DNA of 64,000 nucleotides from positions 23,149 to 87,148 of the forward strand of contig CAAGKK010000044.1 in assembly GCA_900770385.1 (NCBI GenBank), given 5' to 3'. Origin of the DNA: Clostridia bacterium (lineage in GTDB: Bacteria > Bacillota > Clostridia > TANB77 > CAG-508). How positions within the stretch are numbered: position 1 is the first letter of the stretch; each line of letters opens with the position of its first letter. Below are positions 47,290-62,019 of this stretch, piece by piece. The position numbers and the translations under genes are program-made. The notes beneath the pieces were generated by a model that worked only from the letters and a program-made list of their open reading frames with translations, was not told the origin of the DNA and made no database searches.

Positions 47290-47790
47290 ATGTTTTACCC
47301 AAGAGATTATTTTAAAAGTGTAACTCAAATTACTAAAAAATATTTAGATGAAAATAGAATTCAAGCAATAATTCTAGATGTAGATAATACTTTAATTGAC
47401 TATGATAAAAATCTATCTCAAGAAATAATAAGCTGGGCTAACACCTTAAAAGATAGTGGGATTAAAATGGTTATATTGTCTAATAGCAATAAAAAAGAAA
47501 AAGTAAGACATGTAGCAGAAAAATTAAACATAGAATATCTATTCTTTGGAATGAAACCATTAAAAAGAGGTTTTAAAAAAGCAAAAAAAATATTACAAAT
47601 AGAAGAAAATAATAAAATTGCAGTAGTTGGGGACCAGATTTTTACTGATATTATAGGTGCAAATAGAATGAAAATGTATTCAATTCTAGTAGAACCAATA
47701 GAAAAGAGAGATATTTGGATTACTGTTTTAAAAAGACCAATAGAAAACTATATAAAAGATAAATATCTAAAAACAAAAGGAGGCAAATAA
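47290..47790 (+). CDS. yqeG: YqeG-family HAD phosphatase
   Basis: AIILDVDNTL, VILSNSN, VGDQIFTDI; tracked ORF starts at 47272. Confidence 0.85.
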   Translation: MFYPRDYFKSVTQITKKYLDENRIQAIILDVDNTLIDYDKNLSQEIISWANTLKDSGIKMVILSNSNKKEKVRHVAEKLNIEYLFFGMKPLKRGFKKAKKILQIEENNKIAVVGDQIFTDIIGANRMKMYSILVEPIEKRDIWITVLKRPIENYIKDKYLKTKGGK

Positions 47791-48539
47791 TGTACTTTCA
47801 TGATGTACACATACTAATATATGTAGCAATAGCTATACTAGGCTTTATTTTAGGTAAGTTTATAAATTATTGTAATTATAAATTTTTAAATGAAGAAAAA
47901 ATAATAAGCAAAGATTTATTTAGTAAAGAAAAAAAATACAAAAATAATATAATATTACCATTAATTAATGCAGTTATTTATATAATACTACTTTATACAT
48001 TTGGAATAGGAAAAAGCTATCTAGATAATATAGAACTTATAAGATATTTATGTTTAACTCCTATGCTTTTGTCAGTATTCATAATTGATTATAAAAAACA
48101 AATTATCCCTAATAGATTAAATTTAACAATGTTTGAAATAGGCTTAATATTATTATTTGCAGTAGGCATATTTAATGCAAATATTGCAATAGATATGTTT
48201 TTAGGAATGTTAGTTGGTGGTGGAATATTCCTATTAATTACGCTTCTTGGTGGCTTAATTGCAGGAAAAGAAGCAATGGGATTTGGTGATGTAAAGTTAA
48301 TGGCTGCATTAGGCTTATATTTTGGTGTTGCAAATATAATTATGATTACTTTGATTTCTTTTCTATTAGGGGCAATAATTAGCATTATACTATTAGTAAC
48401 TAAAATAAAGAAAACTAGTGAATATATACCATTTGGTCCATTTATAGTAATGGCAACTTTTATAATGATGGTTGTTCCATTTGAAGTGGCATTTTCAATA
48501 TTAGTTACTATATTTTCGTTAGGATTAATGAGAGTATAA
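47790..48539 (+). CDS. Type IV prepilin peptidase (A24 family)
   Basis: Polytopic membrane protein; GKEAMGFGDVKLMAALGLYFG and IPFGPF motifs; start overlaps the yqeG stop. Confidence 0.85.
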   Translation: MYFHDVHILIYVAIAILGFILGKFINYCNYKFLNEEKIISKDLFSKEKKYKNNIILPLINAVIYIILLYTFGIGKSYLDNIELIRYLCLTPMLLSVFIIDYKKQIIPNRLNLTMFEIGLILLFAVGIFNANIAIDMFLGMLVGGGIFLLITLLGGLIAGKEAMGFGDVKLMAALGLYFGVANIIMITLISFLLGAIISIILLVTKIKKTSEYIPFGPFIVMATFIMMVVPFEVAFSILVTIFSLGLMRV

Positions 48540-50510: not shown

Positions 50511-50619
50511 TTGTTACTCCTTAGTAATGTTAATATAATATAAGATTTGAATAAAATCAATATAAAAAAATAAATTGACAAAAAAAATATATAGCTTTAA
50601 AATAAAATAGGTGAAACAT

Positions 50620-51879
50620 ATGAAAAAAATCGAAATATATGATAAAAAGTGGAAAAACATAGCAATTATCACAGCAATAATAATAGCAGTTATAATTATT
50701 GTTGCTATTATTATAAATAGAATTGTGCATTATAAAGTAAAGCAAGAAGTGGTTGCTACTGAAGCTAAATCAAGTAATGAATTATTAAAAGATAATGAAA
50801 TTGAGTGGTTTGAAAACAATGACGATAAACAAAATGATATATATGATATTATAAATGAAAATGTAAATAAAACAGAAAAAGAAGAAATACAAACAGAAAC
50901 TGTCGAACTAGAATATGAAACAGAATATACAAATAACGAAGAACTTCCAAAAGGTATGGTAAAAGTTTTGCAACAAGGAGAAGATGGAAAACAAGAATTA
51001 ATAATTAGAAAAAAATACAATGGAGAAGAATTGGTAAGTGATGAACAAATAGGTAGAAAGATAACATCTCCATGTATTAATAAAATCGTAGAAGTAGGAA
51101 CAGCATCATACTATGATAAACATACAATAAAAGTGGGAGAAACAGTATATTCTACACCATATAATTTAGCTATAAGAGAAAACCCAGAAAAAACTGCAGA
51201 AGTGTTAATAAAAATAAGCCAGGATTCAAAATTAAAAATTTTGAAAAAATCTAGTAGTTGGTATTATGTGGAATATGGCTCTTACTATGGATGGGTAGAA
51301 AAAGACTGCGTAACATATTTAAACCCAACTAAAAATACTTATAACAATAAAAATGATAAATATACAAAAGCACAATTACTAGCAAAATTAAATAAAAACA
51401 TTGACTTAAGTAAACCAAGTGGCTTTTCATTAGAACAGTTTAAAAAGGTATTATCAAATAATAATCAAGATAAAAATAAAGTATTAGAAAATAATGCTGA
51501 GTATTTTTATTATATAGAACAACAATATGGAATAAATGGAGTATTTGTAGCAGCTATAGGTATACATGAAAGTGCGTGGGGAACATCTAAAATTGCAAGA
51601 GATAAAAAGAATTTGTTTGGTTATGGAGCATATGACATGAGTGCATATTCAAGTGCATACTCTTACAATGGATATGCAGCAGGAATAGATATGATAGCCA
51701 GAGTATTAGTAAAACATTATCTAAATCCAAAAGGAACTAGTATTTATGATGGAGAAAAAGCAACAGGAAGGTTTTATGATGGAAAAACATTAACAGCAGT
51801 TAATAAAAGATATGCAACAGACAAAAATTGGAGCAGTAGTGTGTACACTTGGATGCAATATTTATATAAAAGATTATAA
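50620..51879 (+). CDS. Cell-wall hydrolase: TM, G5, SH3b and GH73 N-acetylglucosaminidase domains
   Basis: G5-like LPKGMVKVLQQGEDGKQELIIRKKY; SH3-like SWYYVEYGSYYGWV; GH73 AAIGIHESAWGTSKIA...NLFGYGAYD; AGGTGA SD before ATG 50620. Confidence 0.8.
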   Translation: MKKIEIYDKKWKNIAIITAIIIAVIIIVAIIINRIVHYKVKQEVVATEAKSSNELLKDNEIEWFENNDDKQNDIYDIINENVNKTEKEEIQTETVELEYETEYTNNEELPKGMVKVLQQGEDGKQELIIRKKYNGEELVSDEQIGRKITSPCINKIVEVGTASYYDKHTIKVGETVYSTPYNLAIRENPEKTAEVLIKISQDSKLKILKKSSSWYYVEYGSYYGWVEKDCVTYLNPTKNTYNNKNDKYTKAQLLAKLNKNIDLSKPSGFSLEQFKKVLSNNNQDKNKVLENNAEYFYYIEQQYGINGVFVAAIGIHESAWGTSKIARDKKNLFGYGAYDMSAYSSAYSYNGYAAGIDMIARVLVKHYLNPKGTSIYDGEKATGRFYDGKTLTAVNKRYATDKNWSSSVYTWMQYLYKRL

Positions 51880-52017: not shown

Positions 52018-53844
<1,827 letters not shown>

Positions 53845-54000
53845 AAAAGTAGTGTTATATCTAACAGATGAACAAAAAAATGATAATACAAAAATACCAA
53901 GAACTTGGCAGAAAGATGTAACAAACGTAAAAGAATGGACAGAAACAATAGATAATGAAAAAGTGATATGGACTGTGACTGAATAAAATAGCTAATAAAA

Positions 54001-54026
54001 TACCGCCCGTTTTACAGGCGGTATTT
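54001..54026. terminator. Bidirectional terminator between the LRR gene and tetR
   Basis: AAAA-TACCGCC...GGCGGTA-TTT. Confidence 0.75.
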
Positions 54027-54036
54027 ATTATGATAT

Positions 54037-54657
54037 TTAACTTTTATTATCATTTAAAAGCATATTGGTTATTTGTATAATTGCAACATCAATCATTTTA
54101 TTATAATCTAATTCTTTATGACCATGATATACAATCTCATGGCAAATATCATCTATTATATGCATAGAAATATGAACCTTTTCATAAATATTTTCAATAT
54201 GAAAATTATTTTCTGTTAATACATTAACTATTTTTTTTGTCATATACATTTCGTGCTTTTGAAAGAATATGGCTATTTCTTTATCCAAATGTATCATAGC
54301 AGTAATCTCCTCGTGAGCAATTTGAGATAACTTGTGATTTTCTATAAACTTATTAATCATTTTATTTAAAACTATAGGTAAATCTTCTTTTTTTATTTTT
54401 TGATCGATATCTATTTTTAACATAGGATAGAATATATCAGATGAGTACTTTTCAATACCTTCAATTAATATATCATGTTTATCTTTAAAATATTGATAAA
54501 CAATTCCAGTTGATACACCTGCATATTTAGCAATTTCAGCAGTATTAGTATTATAATATCCTTTTTTACATATAAGATCAAAGCCTGCTTCTATTATTTT
54601 ATTTCTTTTTTCAATGGAACGCTTTTGAATAGGCGTTCTTACTTCATTTAAGCTCAT
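54037..54657 (-). CDS. TetR-family transcriptional regulator
   Basis: TAEIAKYAGVSTGIVYQYFKDK HTH; AAGGAG SD before ATG 54657 (tracked ORF is over-extended to 54741). Confidence 0.9.
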   Translation of the reverse strand: MSLNEVRTPIQKRSIEKRNKIIEAGFDLICKKGYYNTNTAEIAKYAGVSTGIVYQYFKDKHDILIEGIEKYSSDIFYPMLKIDIDQKIKKEDLPIVLNKMINKFIENHKLSQIAHEEITAMIHLDKEIAIFFQKHEMYMTKKIVNVLTENNFHIENIYEKVHISMHIIDDICHEIVYHGHKELDYNKMIDVAIIQITNMLLNDNKS

Positions 54658-54723
54658 AAAATAAATCTCCTTAATATATTTATAATTAATATTATAAGTA
54701 AAAATAAAATAAAAGTCAAACAA

Positions 54724-54804
54724 ATATGAAAAAACTTTCATATTATATTGACTTTTTCTTTTAATATTATTATAATTCTTAGCAGAAATATGAAATTAAT
54801 TTCA
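54724..54804. promoter_or_regulatory. Divergent control region: two palindromes flanking a sigma-A promoter
   Basis: ATATGAAA-AAAC-TTTCATAT (54724-54743); TTGACT, 17-nt spacer, TATAAT (54748-54776); TGAAATTAATTTCA (54791-54804). Confidence 0.6.
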
Positions 54805-54818
54805 ATTAAGGAGGAATT

Positions 54819-55529
54819 ATGGAAAAAATAGTAGAGTTACAAAATGTTAGTAAAGTATATAAAATAGGTGAAAGCGAGTTTAAAGCTCTCGATAATATTG
54901 ATTTGTCTATAAACAAAGGCGAATTTGTAGTAGTACTTGGACCATCAGGAGCTGGAAAATCTACTCTATTAAATTTAATTGGTGGAATGGATTCACCAAC
55001 AAAAGGAAAAATAAAAATAGATGGAGAGGAAATTTCTAAATATAATGAAAATAAACTAAGTGAATACAGAGCAGAAAATATTGGATTTATATTTCAATTT
55101 TATAATATACTTCCAACATTAACAGTTTTAGAAAATGTTGAACTTGTAAAAGATGTTGTAAAAAATGGAAATGATAGCAAAAAAGCAATAGAGGCAGTAG
55201 GATTAAGCAAACATATGAATAAATTTCCAAATCAATTATCAGGAGGAGAACAACAAAGAGTTTCAATTGCCAGAGCAATTGCTAAAAATCCTAAATTACT
55301 ATTATGTGATGAACCAACAGGAGCATTAGACTCTAAAACTGGTGTTGAAGTTTTGAAATTATTAAAAAAACAATGCGATGGAAATAATGGTGCTAATACA
55401 GTAATAATAGTAACTCATAATAGTTTATTTGCAGATATAGCAGATACAGTTATAAGAGTGAAAAATGGAAAAATAGAAAGTGTAACTGCAAATCCAAATC
55501 CTAAAAAGATTGATGAGGTGAAGTGGTAA
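54819..55529 (+). CDS. ABC transporter ATP-binding protein (MacB/LolD-like)
   Basis: GPSGAGKST Walker [27 protein letters not shown]. Confidence 0.92.
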
Positions 55530-55530
55530 T

Positions 55531-57930
55531 ATGTTATTTAAAAAATGCTTAAGAGATATTAAATTAAATAAATCTCAATTTTTAAATATATTTATAATGG
55601 TATTTTTAGGAATATTTGTTTTTGCGGGAATTCATTCATATATGGATGGAATGAGAACCAGTGGGGAAAGATTTTATGAAAATAACAATTTAGCAGATCT
55701 ATGGCTTTCAGGTGAAAACTTTTCAAAAGATGATTTAGAAGATGTTAAAAAAATAGATAATGTTAATGATGCTGAAAGAACATTAATACTAAAAACGGAA
55801 CTATTAGACTACAATGATGTAGTGCTTGAGGCTAATTTTATTGAAAGCAATAATATATGCGAAATGTATGTGCAAGAAGGAGAAGCTTTTGATAAAAATA
55901 AAAAAGGCGTTTGGCTTGATAGTTATTTAGCTAAAAATCTTGGAATAAATCTTGGAGACGAAATAAAATTTAAATATGAGAAATATGAAATGAAAGAAAA
56001 AGTTGTTGGTTTAGTATATACACCAGATCATATATATAATGTTAAAGATCAAACAGCAATTTTTCCGAACCATAAAGATTTTGGATTTATATATTTATCA
56101 ATTAATGAATTTCCAGATCAATTAATATACGATAAAATTAGAGATAAAATGAAAGATGAAAATCCTTATTTAAAAAACGTAGATATCACTAATAAAATGA
56201 TAGAAGAAAATATAAAGGATTTTGATATATCAGATTACTATGTATTTACTAATGTATTGGTAGACTTAAAAGATACCAGTAAAATAGAAGATACTAAAAG
56301 AACAATTGAAAATGAAATCGAATCAGTTTTAGCTGTTACAGATAGAGAAGCAAATGCTTCATATGTAACATTAAATTCTGAAATCGAAGAAGGAAATACA
56401 TATTCTAGTGTATTTACATTATTATTTTTATTTATTGCAATGTTATCTGTAATTACAACCATGAATAGATTTGTAAAAAAACAAAGAGCACAAATAGGAA
56501 CATTAAAAGCTTTAGGAATCAAAAAAAGAAAAATAACAATGCATTATGTAGGATATGGATTTACAATAAGTTTAGTAGCAAGTGTACTGGGACTTATACT
56601 GGGAAATATAGTAATAGGCAATTTTTTTATGAATATGGAAATGGAATATTTTGAAATCCCAGCTTACAGTACAATAATTCTACCTATTGTATATGAATTA
56701 TCAATAGCTGTTATATTAATAGTAACTTTTGTTACATATTTATCATGTAGAAGTATATTAAAAGAACCTGCGGTTGAAGCATTAAGGGTTGAAATACCAA
56801 AAGTTAAAAATACAAAATTCGATTTGACTACAAAAGGAGTATTTAAAAAAGCCTCAATTTCAACTAAATGGAATATAAGAGATATTTGTAGAAATAAAGG
56901 AAGAAGCCTTATGGCAATTGTTGGTGTTATAGGCTGTACAATGTTACTTGTTTGTGCTTTTGGAATGCTTGATACTATGAATTCATACTTAGAATGGGAA
57001 TTTGATGTTTTAAATGATTTTAAATATAAAGTTTCTTTAAGTAATGAATATAGCAACAGTGATTTAGACTCATTAAAAGAAAAATATGGAGATGCAACAA
57101 GTGCAACTGTTGGCATTGAAGTACAAATAAATGATAAGAAAGAAGCAAATACACTTGTGGTTAATGATGCAACAGATTATTTAAAATATACAAACCATAA
57201 AAAGAAATATATAAATCTAAGTGATGATGGAATATATCTTACAGAAAAGCTTGCTGACAAATGGAATATAAAGGTTGGCGATGAAATTAAATTTCACTTG
57301 TTTGGAGATGAAGAGTGGTATACTTGTAAAGCTGTAGGTTTAAATCGTGATCCACAAAATCAAAATTTAAATATTACAAGAAAATGTTATGAAAATTTAG
57401 GGCTTGAATATAAACCGGATTCTTTATATACAAATGACGATTTGAGTAATGCTAAAAACTTAGATGGAGTAAATACAATTCAAAGTATAGAGAATTTAAA
57501 AGATGGAATACAAAGTATGCTAAAAACTGTAAAAACAATGGTATGTTTATTAGTTGTTGTATCTGGAATACTTTCAGCAGTAATTATATATAACTTAGGA
57601 ATATTATCATTTAGTGAAAAGCAATACCAATTTGCAACATTAAAAGTACTTGGGTTTAAAGATAAGCAAATAAAGAAGATATTTGTAAAACAAAACTTAT
57701 GGCTTTCAGTAATTGGAATTATAATAGGTTTACCTCTTGGAAGCATAATGCTTAAGTATATATTTGAAGCAGCATTAGGAGATAATTATGATTTTGTTGC
57801 TATAGTTAAAACAATGTCATATATTTATGCAGCAGTTGGAAGTTATATTGTATCAGTTATAGTTAATAAGCTATTAGCTAAAAAAGTAAAAAATATAGAC
57901 ATGGTAACAAGCCTAAAAGGAAATGAATAA
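55531..57930 (+). CDS. ABC transporter permease with duplicated FtsX-like modules
   Basis: 799 aa; two 4-TM FtsX-type modules, each with a large extracytoplasmic loop. Confidence 0.85.
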   Translation: MLFKKCLRDIKLNKSQFLNIFIMVFLGIFVFAGIHSYMDGMRTSGERFYENNNLADLWLSGENFSKDDLEDVKKIDNVNDAERTLILKTELLDYNDVVLEANFIESNNICEMYVQEGEAFDKNKKGVWLDSYLAKNLGINLGDEIKFKYEKYEMKEKVVGLVYTPDHIYNVKDQTAIFPNHKDFGFIYLSINEFPDQLIYDKIRDKMKDENPYLKNVDITNKMIEENIKDFDISDYYVFTNVLVDLKDTSKIEDTKRTIENEIESVLAVTDREANASYVTLNSEIEEGNTYSSVFTLLFLFIAMLSVITTMNRFVKKQRAQIGTLKALGIKKRKITMHYVGYGFTISLVASVLGLILGNIVIGNFFMNMEMEYFEIPAYSTIILPIVYELSIAVILIVTFVTYLSCRSILKEPAVEALRVEIPKVKNTKFDLTTKGVFKKASISTKWNIRDICRNKGRSLMAIVGVIGCTMLLVCAFGMLDTMNSYLEWEFDVLNDFKYKVSLSNEYSNSDLDSLKEKYGDATSATVGIEVQINDKKEANTLVVNDATDYLKYTNHKKKYINLSDDGIYLTEKLADKWNIKVGDEIKFHLFGDEEWYTCKAVGLNRDPQNQNLNITRKCYENLGLEYKPDSLYTNDDLSNAKNLDGVNTIQSIENLKDGIQSMLKTVKTMVCLLVVVSGILSAVIIYNLGILSFSEKQYQFATLKVLGFKDKQIKKIFVKQNLWLSVIGIIIGLPLGSIMLKYIFEAALGDNYDFVAIVKTMSYIYAAVGSYIVSVIVNKLLAKKVKNIDMVTSLKGNE

Positions 57931-58080: not shown

Positions 58081-58482
58081 ATGAAAAAAGTTGTAGCAAT
58101 TATTTTTATTTTAATTTGTATATTTTCAATATCTACAATTTATGCTACTAATAATAATCAAATTATGAATAATGAAACGGAAAATCAATTAGTACAAATA
58201 AAAGATAAAGAATTAAAAAGTTTAGAAGACTATAAACAAGCATATGGTTCAGAAAGCTATGGTTTAACAGCATATCTTTTGGGAAAAATAAGAATATATA
58301 GTATACCATTTTGCTTTATAGGAATTGCTGTTGGAGCAATATATCAATATGTAATAGGTATAAGGAAAATCGATATTAGAGACAGAGGATTTGCACTATG
58401 CATTGCCTTTGTTACAATTTTCGTGATATGTCAGGTATTACCGCTAATATTTGCTATTGTAGTAAAAAGTTGGAGGGGTTAA
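58081..58482 (+). CDS. Small membrane protein (signal/anchor plus 2 TM)
   Basis: AAAGGAG SD; 133 aa; 3 nt before the next gene. Confidence 0.6.
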   Translation: MKKVVAIIFILICIFSISTIYATNNNQIMNNETENQLVQIKDKELKSLEDYKQAYGSESYGLTAYLLGKIRIYSIPFCFIGIAVGAIYQYVIGIRKIDIRDRGFALCIAFVTIFVICQVLPLIFAIVVKSWRG

Positions 58483-58485
58483 CAA

Positions 58486-60870
58486 ATGAAAGTTTTATTT
58501 GCTGTTAGTAATGAAAATATATCTACACAAATAGTAAAAAGATATCAAAAAGAATATAAAGAAATAATATCATATAAGAATATGTATTATTTTAATGCTG
58601 TTGTAAAAGAACTTCAAAGAGATAAATCTTACGACAGAATAGTTATAGGAGAAGATCTAGAACCATTTTCTAATAATAACTATGATGCTATAGATAAATT
58701 TATATTTGATAAATTAGACAGTATTAGTGATGAAGCAACAGGTAGTGAAGGAGATATTCCAATTATTTTAATATGCGCAGATAGAAGAGCAAAAGCAGAT
58801 CCAATGTTAGTAAAATTATTTGGATTAGGAATATATAATGCGCTATTAGGACCAGATAAAAGTATAGAAAATGTATGCAAGATGATTAACAGACCTCGTA
58901 GCAAAAAAGAAGCTAAAATTTATTATAAAATAGATTCAGATGAAGTTAATTATCAAAGTGAAAATGAAGATACTGTTAGTGAAGTAGAAATAAAAAATAT
59001 ATTAGCTCATTATAAGAGATTGGGAAAAAATGAAGATAGATATGTAGAAAGCTTTAATAATATTGCTGCACAATATAATGATGCACAATTAAGAATTATA
59101 ACAAAATTCTTACCATTAAATGTAAAAGCAGTTTTAGAAGAGCAATCTCCTAAATATCAATCAGTTATGACATTTGGAGATACTGCTTCAGCTATAAACA
59201 GCAGTATGAATCAACAAAAGAAAAAAGATGAAGGTTTAAAAATGGGCTTCTTAAATACTAATAGTGGAAGACCAACTAGACCAGTAATTGTGCCAACAGC
59301 TGTTAATAAAGCAGGAAGAAAAATAGGAACATCTGCAGTTCAACAACAGCAACCTCAAGTTCAAAGAACAATAAATCAAAATTCTTATCAAACTGGTAAC
59401 AATTATTCACCAGCAAGACCTGCTCAAATGCCAAGAATGCCGGAACCTGAAATTGCACCAGTTATGCCAGAACCTGAAGAAGATTTTGAAACAGTAGAAA
59501 TGAATACACCTTCTGTACCAGTTGTAGAAGAAGTACAACCAGTAAAAAGAGGAAGGGGTAGACCTAAGAAAAATGTAGAGCCTATTGAACAAATTGAAAA
59601 CAAACCAAAAAGAGGAAGAGGTAGACCTAAAAAAGTAGTAGAAGAACCAGTGTTACCAGGCTTTGACGAAGACGAAGAACCAACACTACCAGGTTTTGAA
59701 GATCAAAATGAAGAACCAACATTGCCAGGTTTTGATGTATCAAACAGCGAACCAACTTTACCAGGTTTCGATGAACCAGAAGAAGAAATGACTTTACCAG
59801 GATTTGATAATGTTCAAGAAAAACAAGATACTATGTTACCAGGCTTTGATACACCACAAACAATGTCAAATAATAATGTTAACCAATATTCAAGACCAGA
59901 GCCAAGTGGAACAATGTCAAGTTATGGATCAACAAATTCACTTTCTAACTATTCTAATAGCTCTAGTAATTCATACTATTCAAATTCTAGTATGAGTGCA
60001 ACAAATCTATTATCAAAAGATAAGAAAGTTGTAGCATTTGTTGGAACTACTAAAAATGGAACATCATTCTTAGTAAATAATTTAGGAAAAACATGTGCTA
60101 GTATGGGAATAAAAACGGCTATATTAGACTTAACCACAAATAGAAACTCATATTATATATTTACAAATAATGATGAAAAATTAAGAGGAATAGCATATGA
60201 ATCTATAAAAAAACTAAGAAGCGGTATAGCAAGTGGAATAGCAGCAGATAAAAACTTAGATGTATATACAGCTTTACCAGATGATAGAAATGTTCCTTTA
60301 CAAGATGTTAATGGAATATTATCAACTTTAATTCAAAATTATTCTTTAGTGTTAATGGATTGCGATTTCTCAACACCAGTAGAATATTTTGGAGCAACTC
60401 AAGAAATTTATATAGTACAAAGTTTAGATATTCTTACAATACAACCAATGACAGCATTTTTAAGGGATTTAAAGAGTAAAGAGATATTAAGAGAAGAAAA
60501 AATAAGGGTTATTATTAATAAAGAAGTAAGAGTAAGAGGATTAACACCAAAAGCAATAATTGGTGGACTAGCATTTTATAATGATCCATCAATGTCATTT
60601 ATGACAGAATTATTTAATAAAGATAATGTAAAATACTGTACAGTGCCTTTTGATGAAATAACATATATAAAATATTTGGAAAATGTTATGGACTGCGAAA
60701 TATCAACAAATGGATATTCTAGAGAATTTAATATGAAGATGAAAGAGTTAGCAAGCATGGTATATCCTTTAATTGGAAATAAGTATAAGCCAGTTGGAGA
60801 CTATTCTTCTAATAATAGGTTCTCTTCTAATATGAATAGTACATTGGAACAAATGAAAAGAAATTATTAA
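58486..60870 (+). CDS. Receiver-like N-domain, AT-hooks (x2), LPGF(D/E) motifs (x6), Ser/Asn-rich linker and atypical ParA/MinD (TadZ/CpaE-like) domain
   Basis: MKVLFAVSNE...DRIVIGEDLEP...IPIILICA (CheY-like layout); KRGRGRPKK twice; KVVAFVGTTKNGTSFLVNNLG atypical P-loop; LVLMDCDF Walker-B-like. Confidence 0.7.
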   Translation: MKVLFAVSNENISTQIVKRYQKEYKEIISYKNMYYFNAVVKELQRDKSYDRIVIGEDLEPFSNNNYDAIDKFIFDKLDSISDEATGSEGDIPIILICADRRAKADPMLVKLFGLGIYNALLGPDKSIENVCKMINRPRSKKEAKIYYKIDSDEVNYQSENEDTVSEVEIKNILAHYKRLGKNEDRYVESFNNIAAQYNDAQLRIITKFLPLNVKAVLEEQSPKYQSVMTFGDTASAINSSMNQQKKKDEGLKMGFLNTNSGRPTRPVIVPTAVNKAGRKIGTSAVQQQQPQVQRTINQNSYQTGNNYSPARPAQMPRMPEPEIAPVMPEPEEDFETVEMNTPSVPVVEEVQPVKRGRGRPKKNVEPIEQIENKPKRGRGRPKKVVEEPVLPGFDEDEEPTLPGFEDQNEEPTLPGFDVSNSEPTLPGFDEPEEEMTLPGFDNVQEKQDTMLPGFDTPQTMSNNNVNQYSRPEPSGTMSSYGSTNSLSNYSNSSSNSYYSNSSMSATNLLSKDKKVVAFVGTTKNGTSFLVNNLGKTCASMGIKTAILDLTTNRNSYYIFTNNDEKLRGIAYESIKKLRSGIASGIAADKNLDVYTALPDDRNVPLQDVNGILSTLIQNYSLVLMDCDFSTPVEYFGATQEIYIVQSLDILTIQPMTAFLRDLKSKEILREEKIRVIINKEVRVRGLTPKAIIGGLAFYNDPSMSFMTELFNKDNVKYCTVPFDEITYIKYLENVMDCEISTNGYSREFNMKMKELASMVYPLIGNKYKPVGDYSSNNRFSSNMNSTLEQMKRNY
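59650..59850 (+). repeat. Six short-motif repeats encoding (E)P(T/V/M)LPGF(D/E) in an acidic linker
   Basis: TTACCAGG(C/T/A)TT(T/C)GA recurs at 59653, 59686, 59722, 59758, 59794 and 59836. Confidence 0.9.
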
Positions 60871-60900: not shown

Positions 60901-62019
60901 ATGGGCATGATAATAATAATAGTAATACTTGTTATGATAGTTCTAGCATTACTTGCTTATAATGTTGTCATTCATAAAAAAATAGAAGGTTTCGAAAATA
61001 CTAATCAAAGAATTCAGAGCTTAAATGTATTGCAAGAATTTATGAGTACAATAGGAGAAGAAGAAACAGTAGATAACAAAATAACAAAGATTAATAATAT
61101 CTTAATAGAAAAATACGACATAAAATATTCAACTATAGTAGTTTTTGATGGAGCAGAATATGTAATAAAAGCAACCAATGTAAACGAAAAACACTGGGAT
61201 ACTATGAGAAATCTTCAATCAGAAGAAATATTTCAAGACAGCATTATGTCAGCTACGCCTAAATCTATAACGGTAGATAATGAGCAAGAAAAATTACCAT
61301 ACCAAAAAGTAGAATTTGGAAGAGCAAAATCAGCAATATTCTTCCCTTTGTATATTGATAATATTTATATTGGATATTGGATTATAGAAAGTGGAATACC
61401 ACATGCTTTTGATAAATTAGATACAACTATATTAGAAGTTGTAAAAGAAAATATTATATCTGTTTTAAAATCAGTTGCATATCAATCAACAGTAGAAAGT
61501 TTACCAAGAAAGGATTTATACTCAGAATTAACAACAGGTGAGTATTTATATGGAAAAGGTAAGAGAATTATAGATAAATATCCAACATCTACAATATGTA
61601 TGTTTAGAATTACAAATTTAGAGGAAATAAATAAAACAACTAATAGAGAAACTGGAAATAATGTTATAACAAGTGTAAGTAGATATGTAAGAGAAAGTAT
61701 ATCTTCAGAATATTTATTTGTAAGATATATGGGACCTAAATTTGTAATAGCATTTTCAGGAGTAGATGTTGATGGATCAACAGGATTTTTACAAGACTTA
61801 AAAAATGGAATAGAAAACTTAAAAATAAATGTTGAAGGTTTAGAAGAAACAAAACCAACCAAGAAATCAAAAAAGACAACAATAACAGAAGTTATTCCAA
61901 AAATTAATATAGTAGTAACTACATATTATAAAGGAACAGCATTAGAAAGTGTAACTCAAAAATTAGAAGAATACTTAGATAATGCGCCAAAAGAAGAAAA
62001 TGATATTAATGAAATTTAA
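60901..62019 (+). CDS. Membrane-anchored GAF-like protein with degenerate GGDEF domain
   Basis: N-terminal TM; the C-terminal region aligns to the GGDEF layout (RKDLYSELT..., [37 protein letters not shown]) with GGDEF replaced by MGPKF. Confidence 0.6.

Follow-up and report, generated by a model that had tools for sequence, protein, structure and literature searches.

AT-hooks and an acidic LPGF array in the linker of a putative P-loop scaffold family from uncultured Clostridia

The subject of this analysis is the gene of a 794-amino-acid (aa) protein on a 64,000-nucleotide (nt) stretch of DNA from a Clostridia bacterium (GCA_900770385.1, contig CAAGKK010000044.1, positions 23,149 to 87,148, forward strand), hereafter termed the window. 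A disordered linker of approximately 270 aa joins the two folded domains of the protein and bears two AT-hooks followed by a strongly acidic array of six LPGF motifs. As far as can be judged from the sequences, both hooks and LPGF motifs are real, non-random and under purifying selection in the hook-bearing clade of the family. The protein is tentatively regarded, with a confidence somewhat short of even, as a nucleoid-tethered scaffold derived from TadZ/CpaE-type proteins, the hooks of which would lie on AT-rich DNA and the acidic-hydrophobic motifs of which would serve multivalent docking. The central features are the following:

58486-60870, plus strand: open reading frame (ORF) of the 794-aa protein; no transmembrane (TM) segment, predicted to be cytoplasmic; family without annotation
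59545-59571, plus strand: AT-hook 1, KRGRGRPKK (aa 354-362), with G358, R359, and P360 invariant
59608-59634, plus strand: AT-hook 2, KRGRGRPKK (aa 375-383), with R378 invariant and G379, R380, and P381 near-invariant
59641-59853, plus strand: acidic array of six [ED][ED]x[TVM]-LPGF-[DE] units, encoded by a degenerate 36-nt tandem repeat

AT-hooks and LPGF array

A first-pass annotation of this DNA had reported KRGRGRPKK twice, 21 aa apart, which was borne out for the ORF with the distance counted from start to start; the interval given for the first hook was exact, that for the second was one base off. The classification as canonical AT-hooks stands as well. On the isolated 39-aa hook segment, the Pfam profile AT_hook (PF02178) reached 30 bits against a cutoff of 17.4 bits in two matched stretches, and on the 269-aa linker it reached 16.7 bits, slightly below this cutoff. 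The LPGF cores of the array, two to three units of which read EEPTLPGFEDQNEEPTLPGFDV, start at aa 390, 401, 413, 425, 437, and 451, corresponding to spacings of 11, 12, 12, 12, and 14 aa, and stand in the contexts EEPVLPGFDE, EEPTLPGFED, EEPTLPGFDV, SEPTLPGFDE, EEMTLPGFDN, and QDTMLPGFDT. The net charge amounts to -19 for the array (aa 388-460) and +8 for the hook segment, in agreement with the earlier description of six LPGF[DE] motifs within an acidic stretch. When the linker was shuffled 100,000 times, LPGF occurred 0.002 times on average and [RK]GRP[RK] 0.001 times, with a maximum of one in either case, compared with the six and two occurrences observed. In a six-frame translation of the window, LPGF and basic-flanked GRP were confined to the frame of this ORF.

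Both motif types are kept throughout the closest relatives. The best 120 homologs (60-76% identity) contain, without exception, one to four hooks, mostly two, and two to nine LPGF motifs, and all 83 full-length genes at species level encode two to three hooks together with one to eight motifs of the form Phi-P-G-Phi (Phi, hydrophobic residue). When 68 sequences were aligned, the N- and C-terminal domains showed high conservation; in the middle linker (aa 280-505), only the columns of hook and LPGF cores are conserved to at least 90%, with spacers between them that vary freely. The extended motif, derived from 657 instances in 120 orthologs, reads [ED][ED]x[TVI]-LPGF-D-[DE]-[IV]-[ED]. The copy number of the array differs among species, and some orthologs feature an exact 13-aa periodicity.

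Codon variation beneath a constant peptide motif, which had also been noticed at first, was found in the ORF itself (GGC, GGT, or GGA for glycine, TTT or TTC for phenylalanine, and TTA, CTA, or TTG for leucine) and in 83 loci, where merely 106 of 544 within-gene LPGF pairs share an identical 12-nt sequence and 81% differ in codons. In the DNA of the array, 36-nt repeat units follow one another in tandem with 77-81% matches, which indicates an origin by duplication, though not a recent one. The original interpretation, selection rather than recent duplication, is therefore retained in its first part by the 120 homologs, the 83 genes and the conserved columns, yet the array is an old, diverged tandem duplication, and duplication and selection are both at work.

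A search of related loci and metagenomes, suggested along with the first observations, located such arrays, in the material covered, only in the family of the 794-aa protein. Acidic [LM]PGF[DE] arrays were found neither in other ORFs of 1.13 Mb of related loci nor in viral contigs, and among the 120 loci listed in a metagenome pattern scan every match in a long ORF of low GC content belongs to this family. Other PGF repeats among the matches listed are unrelated and originate from high-GC or short ORFs. The pattern scan also listed the metagenome contigs L157, L172, L097, and L153, where PGF[DE] repeats of other kinds occur in long ORFs that are unrelated and represent other families and other habitats, e.g., an 882-aa ORF (57% GC) with EETPGFEGGxGHELE or repeats of the type GPGFDDFGFGPGPG. 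In the literature, no paper was found that pairs LPGF with an AT-hook or describes the motif; the matches for LPGFD, LPGFE, and TLPGF were unrelated, mostly papers on peptide screening, epitopes, and venoms, and searches on ParA-like proteins, AT-hooks, and Clostridium returned nothing on the family.

Known peptide motifs were rejected as identities of LPGF. Resemblance to the sliding-clamp motif QL[SD]LF is limited to the variants IDLF and NLFDL that occur elsewhere in the family and does not extend to LPGF. The FtsZ C-terminal peptide D-[IL]-P-x-F-[LM]-[RK] shares [IL]PxF, but the residues after phenylalanine are acidic here instead of hydrophobic and basic, and the lineages with IDLF and LLDL have lost the proline. 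The tip of SSB, DDD[IL]PF, requires a free C-terminus.

Folded domains and the plasmid relative

The two domains flanking the linker comprise the following features, of which the C-terminal fold was assigned by an AlphaFold2 (AF2) model, Foldseek, and alignments of hidden Markov models (HMMs):

58486-59190, plus strand: N-terminal domain (aa 1-235), a beta/alpha part, perhaps receiver-like, followed by a helical bundle
60001-60867, plus strand: C-terminal domain with a MinD/ParA-type (SIMIBI) P-loop fold
60043-60066, plus strand: degenerate P-loop GTTKNGTS
60118-60138, plus strand: motif LDLT of the C-terminal domain
60349-60369, plus strand: motif MDCDF of the C-terminal domain
60820-60867, plus strand: amphipathic C-terminal tail FSSNMNSTLEQMKRNY, the last 16 aa, recognized by its helical moment

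The initial label 'ParA-like' is justified for fold and profile only. The AF2 model of aa 505-794 (predicted local distance difference test, pLDDT, 79; predicted template modelling score, pTM, 0.81) retrieved MinD, Borrelia ParA, FleN, FlhG, and Soj in Foldseek at E-values of 1e-7 to 1e-6 and a probability of 1.00, and also NifH and BcsQ, with template modelling (TM) scores of 0.55-0.71 and merely 11-19% identity. Curated HMMs of Pfam and NCBIfam, including CbiA/AAA_31/ParA and MinD, gave no match to the whole protein at E-values up to 0.01, and the isolated C-terminal domain had no relevant match in either collection at E-values up to 10. The deviant Walker-A signature K-G-G-x-G-K-[ST] was not found in the domain, and the P-loop lysine is replaced by threonine. 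This replacement follows from the single kind of match that the profile of the C-terminal domain gave by sequence in the PDB, the bacterial tyrosine kinase (BY-kinase) CapB at an E-value of 0.004, where GTSKNGTS is placed on EAPGAGKS and GTS hence aligned to the GKS of CapB. The full-length profile had no sequence match among solved structures. Where a P-loop is detectable, nearly all members of the family show G-x-x-K-x-G-x-[ST], with exceptions including GTTQNGTS, GAHGNGTS, and GAHNSGNS. The lysine two residues earlier in the P-loop, kept in nearly all members, could represent a relocated catalytic lysine or belong to a dead site.

The protein thus shares the fold of the C-terminal domain with MinD, ParA, FlhG, and FleN, as well as a short amphipathic tail, the hydrophobic moment of which is 1.07 compared with 1.16 for the membrane-targeting sequence of Escherichia coli MinD. 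Deep-branch members end in KKGLF or KRGIFG, like the MinD sequence. In other branches and in a plasmid paralog, the termini KKGLFR, KRGIFG, or NKFFGRRK were observed, which resemble MinD-type membrane-targeting tails. In contrast to these ATPases, the low identity, the absence of any family HMM match, of the KGGxGK[ST] signature and of the P-loop lysine set the protein apart, and its DNA contact would presumably be made by AT-hooks and not by the surface of an ATP-dependent dimer.

In Firmicutes, the gene capA of the membrane activator CapA lies upstream of capB, which encodes the BY-kinase. The present locus is similar in having a small membrane-protein gene immediately upstream and in CapB being the sole sequence-level PDB match of the C-terminal domain. 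Nevertheless, identity with a BY-kinase was rejected on account of the threonine in place of the Walker-A lysine, the absence of the C-terminal tyrosine cluster characteristic of these kinases (isolated tyrosine residues only) and the marginal E-value.

The N-terminal domain is the best-conserved part of the protein, with 83-94% identity among orthologs. Its AF2 model reached a pLDDT of 64, and the Foldseek list obtained with this model consists mostly of response-regulator receiver domains, every one at an E-value above 0.05. An hhalign comparison with the receiver domain of Spo0A gave a probability of 3.6%, which is not significant.

A tblastn search of plasmids revealed that the N-terminal domain is 26-29% identical to a 'hypothetical protein' of approximately 545 aa in Clostridium botulinum and C. 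beijerinckii. This protein features the same two-domain layout with a short linker of the KEVPV type, an intact P-loop (SSGKS), a Pfam CbiA/MinD/ParA match above threshold, and a MinD-like tail. By hhalign, the N-terminal domain was matched to it with a probability of 98.7% (E-value 3e-16) and the C-terminal domain to its CbiA domain with 95.5% (E-value 1.4e-8), GTS again being placed on GKS. The reciprocal search with the plasmid protein returned the chromosomal family as weaker matches. Both domains are accordingly homologous to this Clostridium plasmid protein with its intact GKS P-loop. On the plasmids, the gene is followed by that of a SAF-domain protein with weak similarity to CpaB (E-value 0.0015, below the cutoff) and by a RefSeq 'ATPase, T2SS/T4P/T4SS family' (type II secretion system, type IV pilus, type IV secretion system) with weak similarity to the TadA family (E-value 0.008, below the cutoff).

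Such an arrangement, although the similarities are weak, corresponds to a Tad-type cluster, where the protein that combines receiver-like and ParA-like parts is TadZ/CpaE (PMC11217815). TadZ is a component of the Tad (type IVc) pilus implicated in polar localization, and a 'TadZ-like atypical receiver domain' has been described (PMC11217815). Likeness to TadZ/CpaE exists in the succession of an N-terminal alpha/beta domain and a MinD/ParA-fold P-loop domain in one polypeptide and in the plasmid homologs of both domains, which adjoin genes for SAF/CpaB-like proteins and T2SS/T4P/T4SS-family ATPases. The differences are the chromosomal location without adjacent Tad genes, the loss of the P-loop lysine, and the insertion of a disordered linker of 270 aa that bears hooks and acidic repeats. 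The likeness is drawn via the plasmid relatives. The family may descend from a TadZ/CpaE-type two-domain protein, i.e., perhaps an atypical receiver combined with a MinD/ParA-fold P-loop domain.

Family, linker types and gene neighbourhood

Of 8000 scored candidates, 6786 are relatives at E-values up to 0.001, a count which low-complexity matches may inflate. The family comprises 851 clusters at 50% identity, and all members are named 'hypothetical protein', none with a Pfam domain. When one genome of each GTDB species was scanned, 430 stretches proved to contain relatives. All of these stretches belong to metagenome-assembled genomes of uncultured Clostridia and originate largely from animal and human gut. 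Hook-bearing 50%-identity clusters mostly possess two hooks 17-28 aa apart and then an acidic stretch. Over the 100 aa past the last hook, the net charge is -10 or lower in 53 of 60 such clusters, with a median of -21.5 compared with -6 upstream, and arrays are almost always accompanied by hooks, with 2 exceptions among 40.

The linker ranges from 74 to 765 aa across the family. Apart from hooks and array, the linker of the 794-aa protein has a P/Q-rich part by composition and the following elements:

59233-59253, plus strand: conserved motif GLKMGFL near the N-terminal end of the linker, invariant or near-invariant columns
59278-59304, plus strand: conserved motif RPVIVPTAV near the N-terminal end of the linker, invariant or near-invariant columns
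59863-60000, plus strand: low-complexity segment rich in S (38%), N (20%), and Y (11%)

The low-complexity segment is prion-like and separates the acidic array from the P-loop domain. A G-L-x-G-Phi-L motif is kept even in a branch with a coiled-coil linker (RGLFGIL, KGILGFL), and versions of RPVIVPTAV occur in hook-less family members (e.g., VIVPTEI, IIIPRV). GLKMGFL and RPVIVPTAV may be of greater weight for the core function of the family than hooks or LPGF. A chromosomal-type protein of 617 aa with a short linker (P0421) and the plasmid paralog (L206:8001-9641) share a linker of (I/V)KEVPV(D/E)(K/R)E repeats, and a repeat linker of this KEVPV type may be ancestral.

The neighbouring genes are:

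58081-58482, plus strand: 133-aa membrane protein with three hydrophobic segments (aa 1-19, 66-84, 99-117)
60901-62019, plus strand: 372-aa protein with a degenerate GGDEF domain (Pfam GGDEF, E-value 3.7e-5) and one N-terminal TM segment
62028-63123, plus strand: ireB, ruvX, and DUF1292 genes (Pfam matches), the constant downstream synteny anchor

The 133-aa gene ends with a stop codon 4 nt ahead of the 794-aa ORF, and a small membrane-protein gene precedes the homolog in 83 of 85 loci, including L084 and L085 of a deep branch. The Pfam match of the 372-aa protein is marginal (24.0 bits against a cutoff of 23.8 bits), and its active site reads RYMGPKF instead of the intact GG[DE]EF of a diguanylate cyclase. 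The gene follows downstream in 82 of the 85 loci and is absent from those of the deep and coiled-coil branches. As it tracks the hook-bearing and not the coiled-coil branch, its product is a candidate partner of the hook and array module. The complete order, i.e., membrane protein, 794-aa protein, degenerate GGDEF, ireB, ruvX, and DUF1292, was found in 70 loci, and most of the others show a shorter run in the same order, for which contig ends are probably responsible. The deep branch retains the membrane-protein gene and ireB-ruvX-DUF1292 without the GGDEF-like gene, and a short-linker branch from an oral metagenome is likewise located upstream of ireB.

No tad/cpa pilus cluster was found among the immediate neighbours of the chromosomal gene. 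A type IV prepilin peptidase gene (Peptidase_A24) is located at 47790-48539, approximately 10 kb upstream, and further pilus genes were seen neither among ten scanned ORFs (42.7-55.5 kb) nor beside the 794-aa gene. Furthermore, four genes at 52018-57930 (a 608-aa ORF without Pfam match, a minus-strand gene for a TetR regulator, and genes for an ABC ATPase and an FtsX-type permease) separate a G5/SH3/glucosaminidase gene (50611-51879) from the 133-aa membrane-protein gene. In the loci L001-L003, the glucosaminidase gene is directly upstream, and the region 52018-57930 looks like a lineage-specific insertion. A defence system was rejected, with no PADLOC match for the three genes, as was a phage origin, since tblastn gave no match among 50,697 phage records and viral contigs were free of the array.

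Proposed function and competing explanations

The first hook of human HMGA1, KRGRGRPRK, is nearly identical to KRGRGRPKK, and HMGA1 contains three hooks followed by an acidic tail. We know of no counterpart in HMGA or in the myxobacterial protein CarD to the periodic Phi-P-G-Phi motif of the acidic part. In CarD of Myxococcus xanthus, an acidic segment and four RGRP hooks form an unfolded, HMGA-like C-terminal domain (PMC4374960). The 794-aa protein shares with these proteins an intrinsically disordered region where K/R-flanked RGRP hooks are paired with a strongly acidic segment. However, the acidic segment of CarD precedes the hooks and its domain is fused to an RNA-polymerase-binding domain, whereas the present module is situated between two domains of a P-loop scaffold. 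Hooks and acidic array are thus an HMGA/CarD-like module acquired in the inter-domain linker of a low-GC lineage.

According to the proposed scaffold function, the protein would act as a non-enzymatic or slow-cycling scaffold and not as a ParA-type ATPase motor. By non-specific contacts in the minor groove, the hooks would fasten it to the AT-rich chromosome and would thereby take the place of the DNA binding that depends on ATP in true ParA proteins. Since the window has 27% GC and one A/T run of at least 6 bp per 26 bp, the hooks would find binding sites nearly everywhere on the chromosome. As the first-pass annotation had plausibly suggested, the six acid-flanked LPGF units may represent multivalent docking sites, which as 'stickers' would bring several copies of a partner together at the nucleoid. 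The candidates for this partner are the folded domains of the protein itself in trans, the membrane-anchored degenerate-GGDEF protein, or the upstream membrane protein, and membrane-linked neighbours or own domains would be the most economical choice. The amphipathic tail together with the neighbouring membrane proteins may link the assembly to the membrane.

Polar hub proteins offer a further comparison. HubP, one of these hubs, recruits ParA-like ATPases. Hubs of the HubP/FimV type are landmark or scaffold proteins with long acidic regions in the cytoplasm (PMC12918733), a trait also seen here. The 794-aa protein differs in lacking LysM, TM segment, FimV domain, and homology, and in bearing the acidic array inside the ParA-fold protein itself, beside DNA hooks.

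Several points weigh against a docking scaffold. The hydrophobic core varies across the family and includes LPGF, LPGL/M, IPGL/V, MPGF, IDLF/NLFDL, LLDLD(D), and LEDIDLD, with 10 copies of LLDLDD and 12 of LEDIDLD. This drift fits a fuzzy or co-evolving interaction and equally mere composition, and LPGF appears to be the form that one lineage has of a looser, acid-flanked Phi-x-x-Phi-[DE] motif. Moreover, the first-pass annotation had named orthologs that function without both motifs as an argument against their importance. The close homologs possess them throughout, but syntenic relatives lack hooks and arrays alike, one branch having a coiled-coil-like linker rich in E, K, Q, and A and another a short linker, that of P0421 consisting of KEVPV repeats. 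Accordingly, the module is a clade-specific add-on that is presumably dispensable for the core role of the family. The near-invariant upstream lysine of the P-loop might still support nucleotide binding, and the protein is a presumed pseudo-ATPase. The partners are candidates and the binding of DNA by the hooks is a prediction. Finally, the N-terminal domain model is poor, its receiver-likeness is significant neither by fold nor by profile, and the plasmid cluster is merely weakly Tad-like by the E-values of its CpaB and TadA-family similarities.

A further reading, possible but rather doubtful, regards Phi-P-G-Phi-[DE] as a new class of multivalent bacterial short linear motifs, which would recruit a specific partner to the chromosome via the AT-hooks. 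This partner could be the degenerate-GGDEF membrane protein or an envelope or cell-cycle factor linked to the ireB module. If so, the family would represent a nucleoid-tethered hub on the basis of an inactivated TadZ/ParA scaffold, and hence a bacterial positioning system in which eukaryote-style minor-groove hooks have been exchanged for ATP-driven DNA binding.

The main rival of the docking scaffold, although unlikely, is autoinhibition of the hooks by the array in the manner of HMGA and CarD. The array would fold back, either on the hooks or on that face of the P-loop domain which binds DNA, and act as an electrostatic DNA mimic that tunes or gates nucleoid binding, while the spaced hydrophobic residues would merely strengthen an intramolecular contact. 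Consistent with this, the basic hooks directly adjoin the acidic segment, such a segment follows the hooks in most hook-bearing clusters, and arrays occur almost exclusively together with hooks. HMGA1 and CarD combine hooks with acidic segments as well, and the drift of the hydrophobic core among lineages would be more easily tolerated by a fuzzy intramolecular contact. Yet charge alone does not need the invariant L-P-G-F core, present in 100% of the 657 motifs from 120 orthologs, nor the preferred flanks (T, V, or I at position -1, I or V at +6), and six to nine copies exceed the need of two hooks.

Quite improbable is the formation of a condensate, in which Phi-P-G-Phi units, acidic spacers, hooks, and S/N/Y-rich segment would drive self-association or complex coacervation on DNA without any partner pocket. 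The composition of the linker, with its P/Q-rich part, basic hooks, one aromatic residue per approximately 12 aa in the acidic array and S/N/Y-rich segment, would suit such behaviour. The Phi-P-G-Phi units recall the VPGVG of elastin, and copy number (1-9) and motif flavour vary with the periodicity kept. However, this explanation draws purely on composition, a strongly net-negative array would resist homotypic coacervation, and other branches manage without such a linker. The least probable explanation, a neutral spacer that just separates folded domains and whose apparent motif conservation results from slippage and concerted evolution, would account for the 36-nt tandem repeat, the exact 13-aa periodicity of some orthologs and the diversity of linker length and type (coiled coil, KEVPV repeats, or acidic repeats), but the evidence for selection argues against it, i.e., both hooks and at least one Phi-P-G-Phi in all 83 species-level genes, motif cores as sole conserved columns of the middle linker between spacers free to vary, prevailing codon differences within genes, and a constrained hook spacing.

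With respect to the Clostridia, the analysis draws attention to a large family that is confined to uncultured members of this class, mostly from gut metagenomes, and is entirely without annotation. If the docking scaffold proved true, its module would be the second bacterial combination of HMGA-type hooks and acidic segment after that of the myxobacterial CarD. The protein would represent a ParA/MinD-fold protein without catalytic lysine, the DNA contact of which is apparently outsourced to AT-hooks, and LPGF would be a candidate for a new docking motif. Moreover, the 794-aa protein offers a starting point for explaining the conserved block of genes that precedes ireB-ruvX in these Clostridia.

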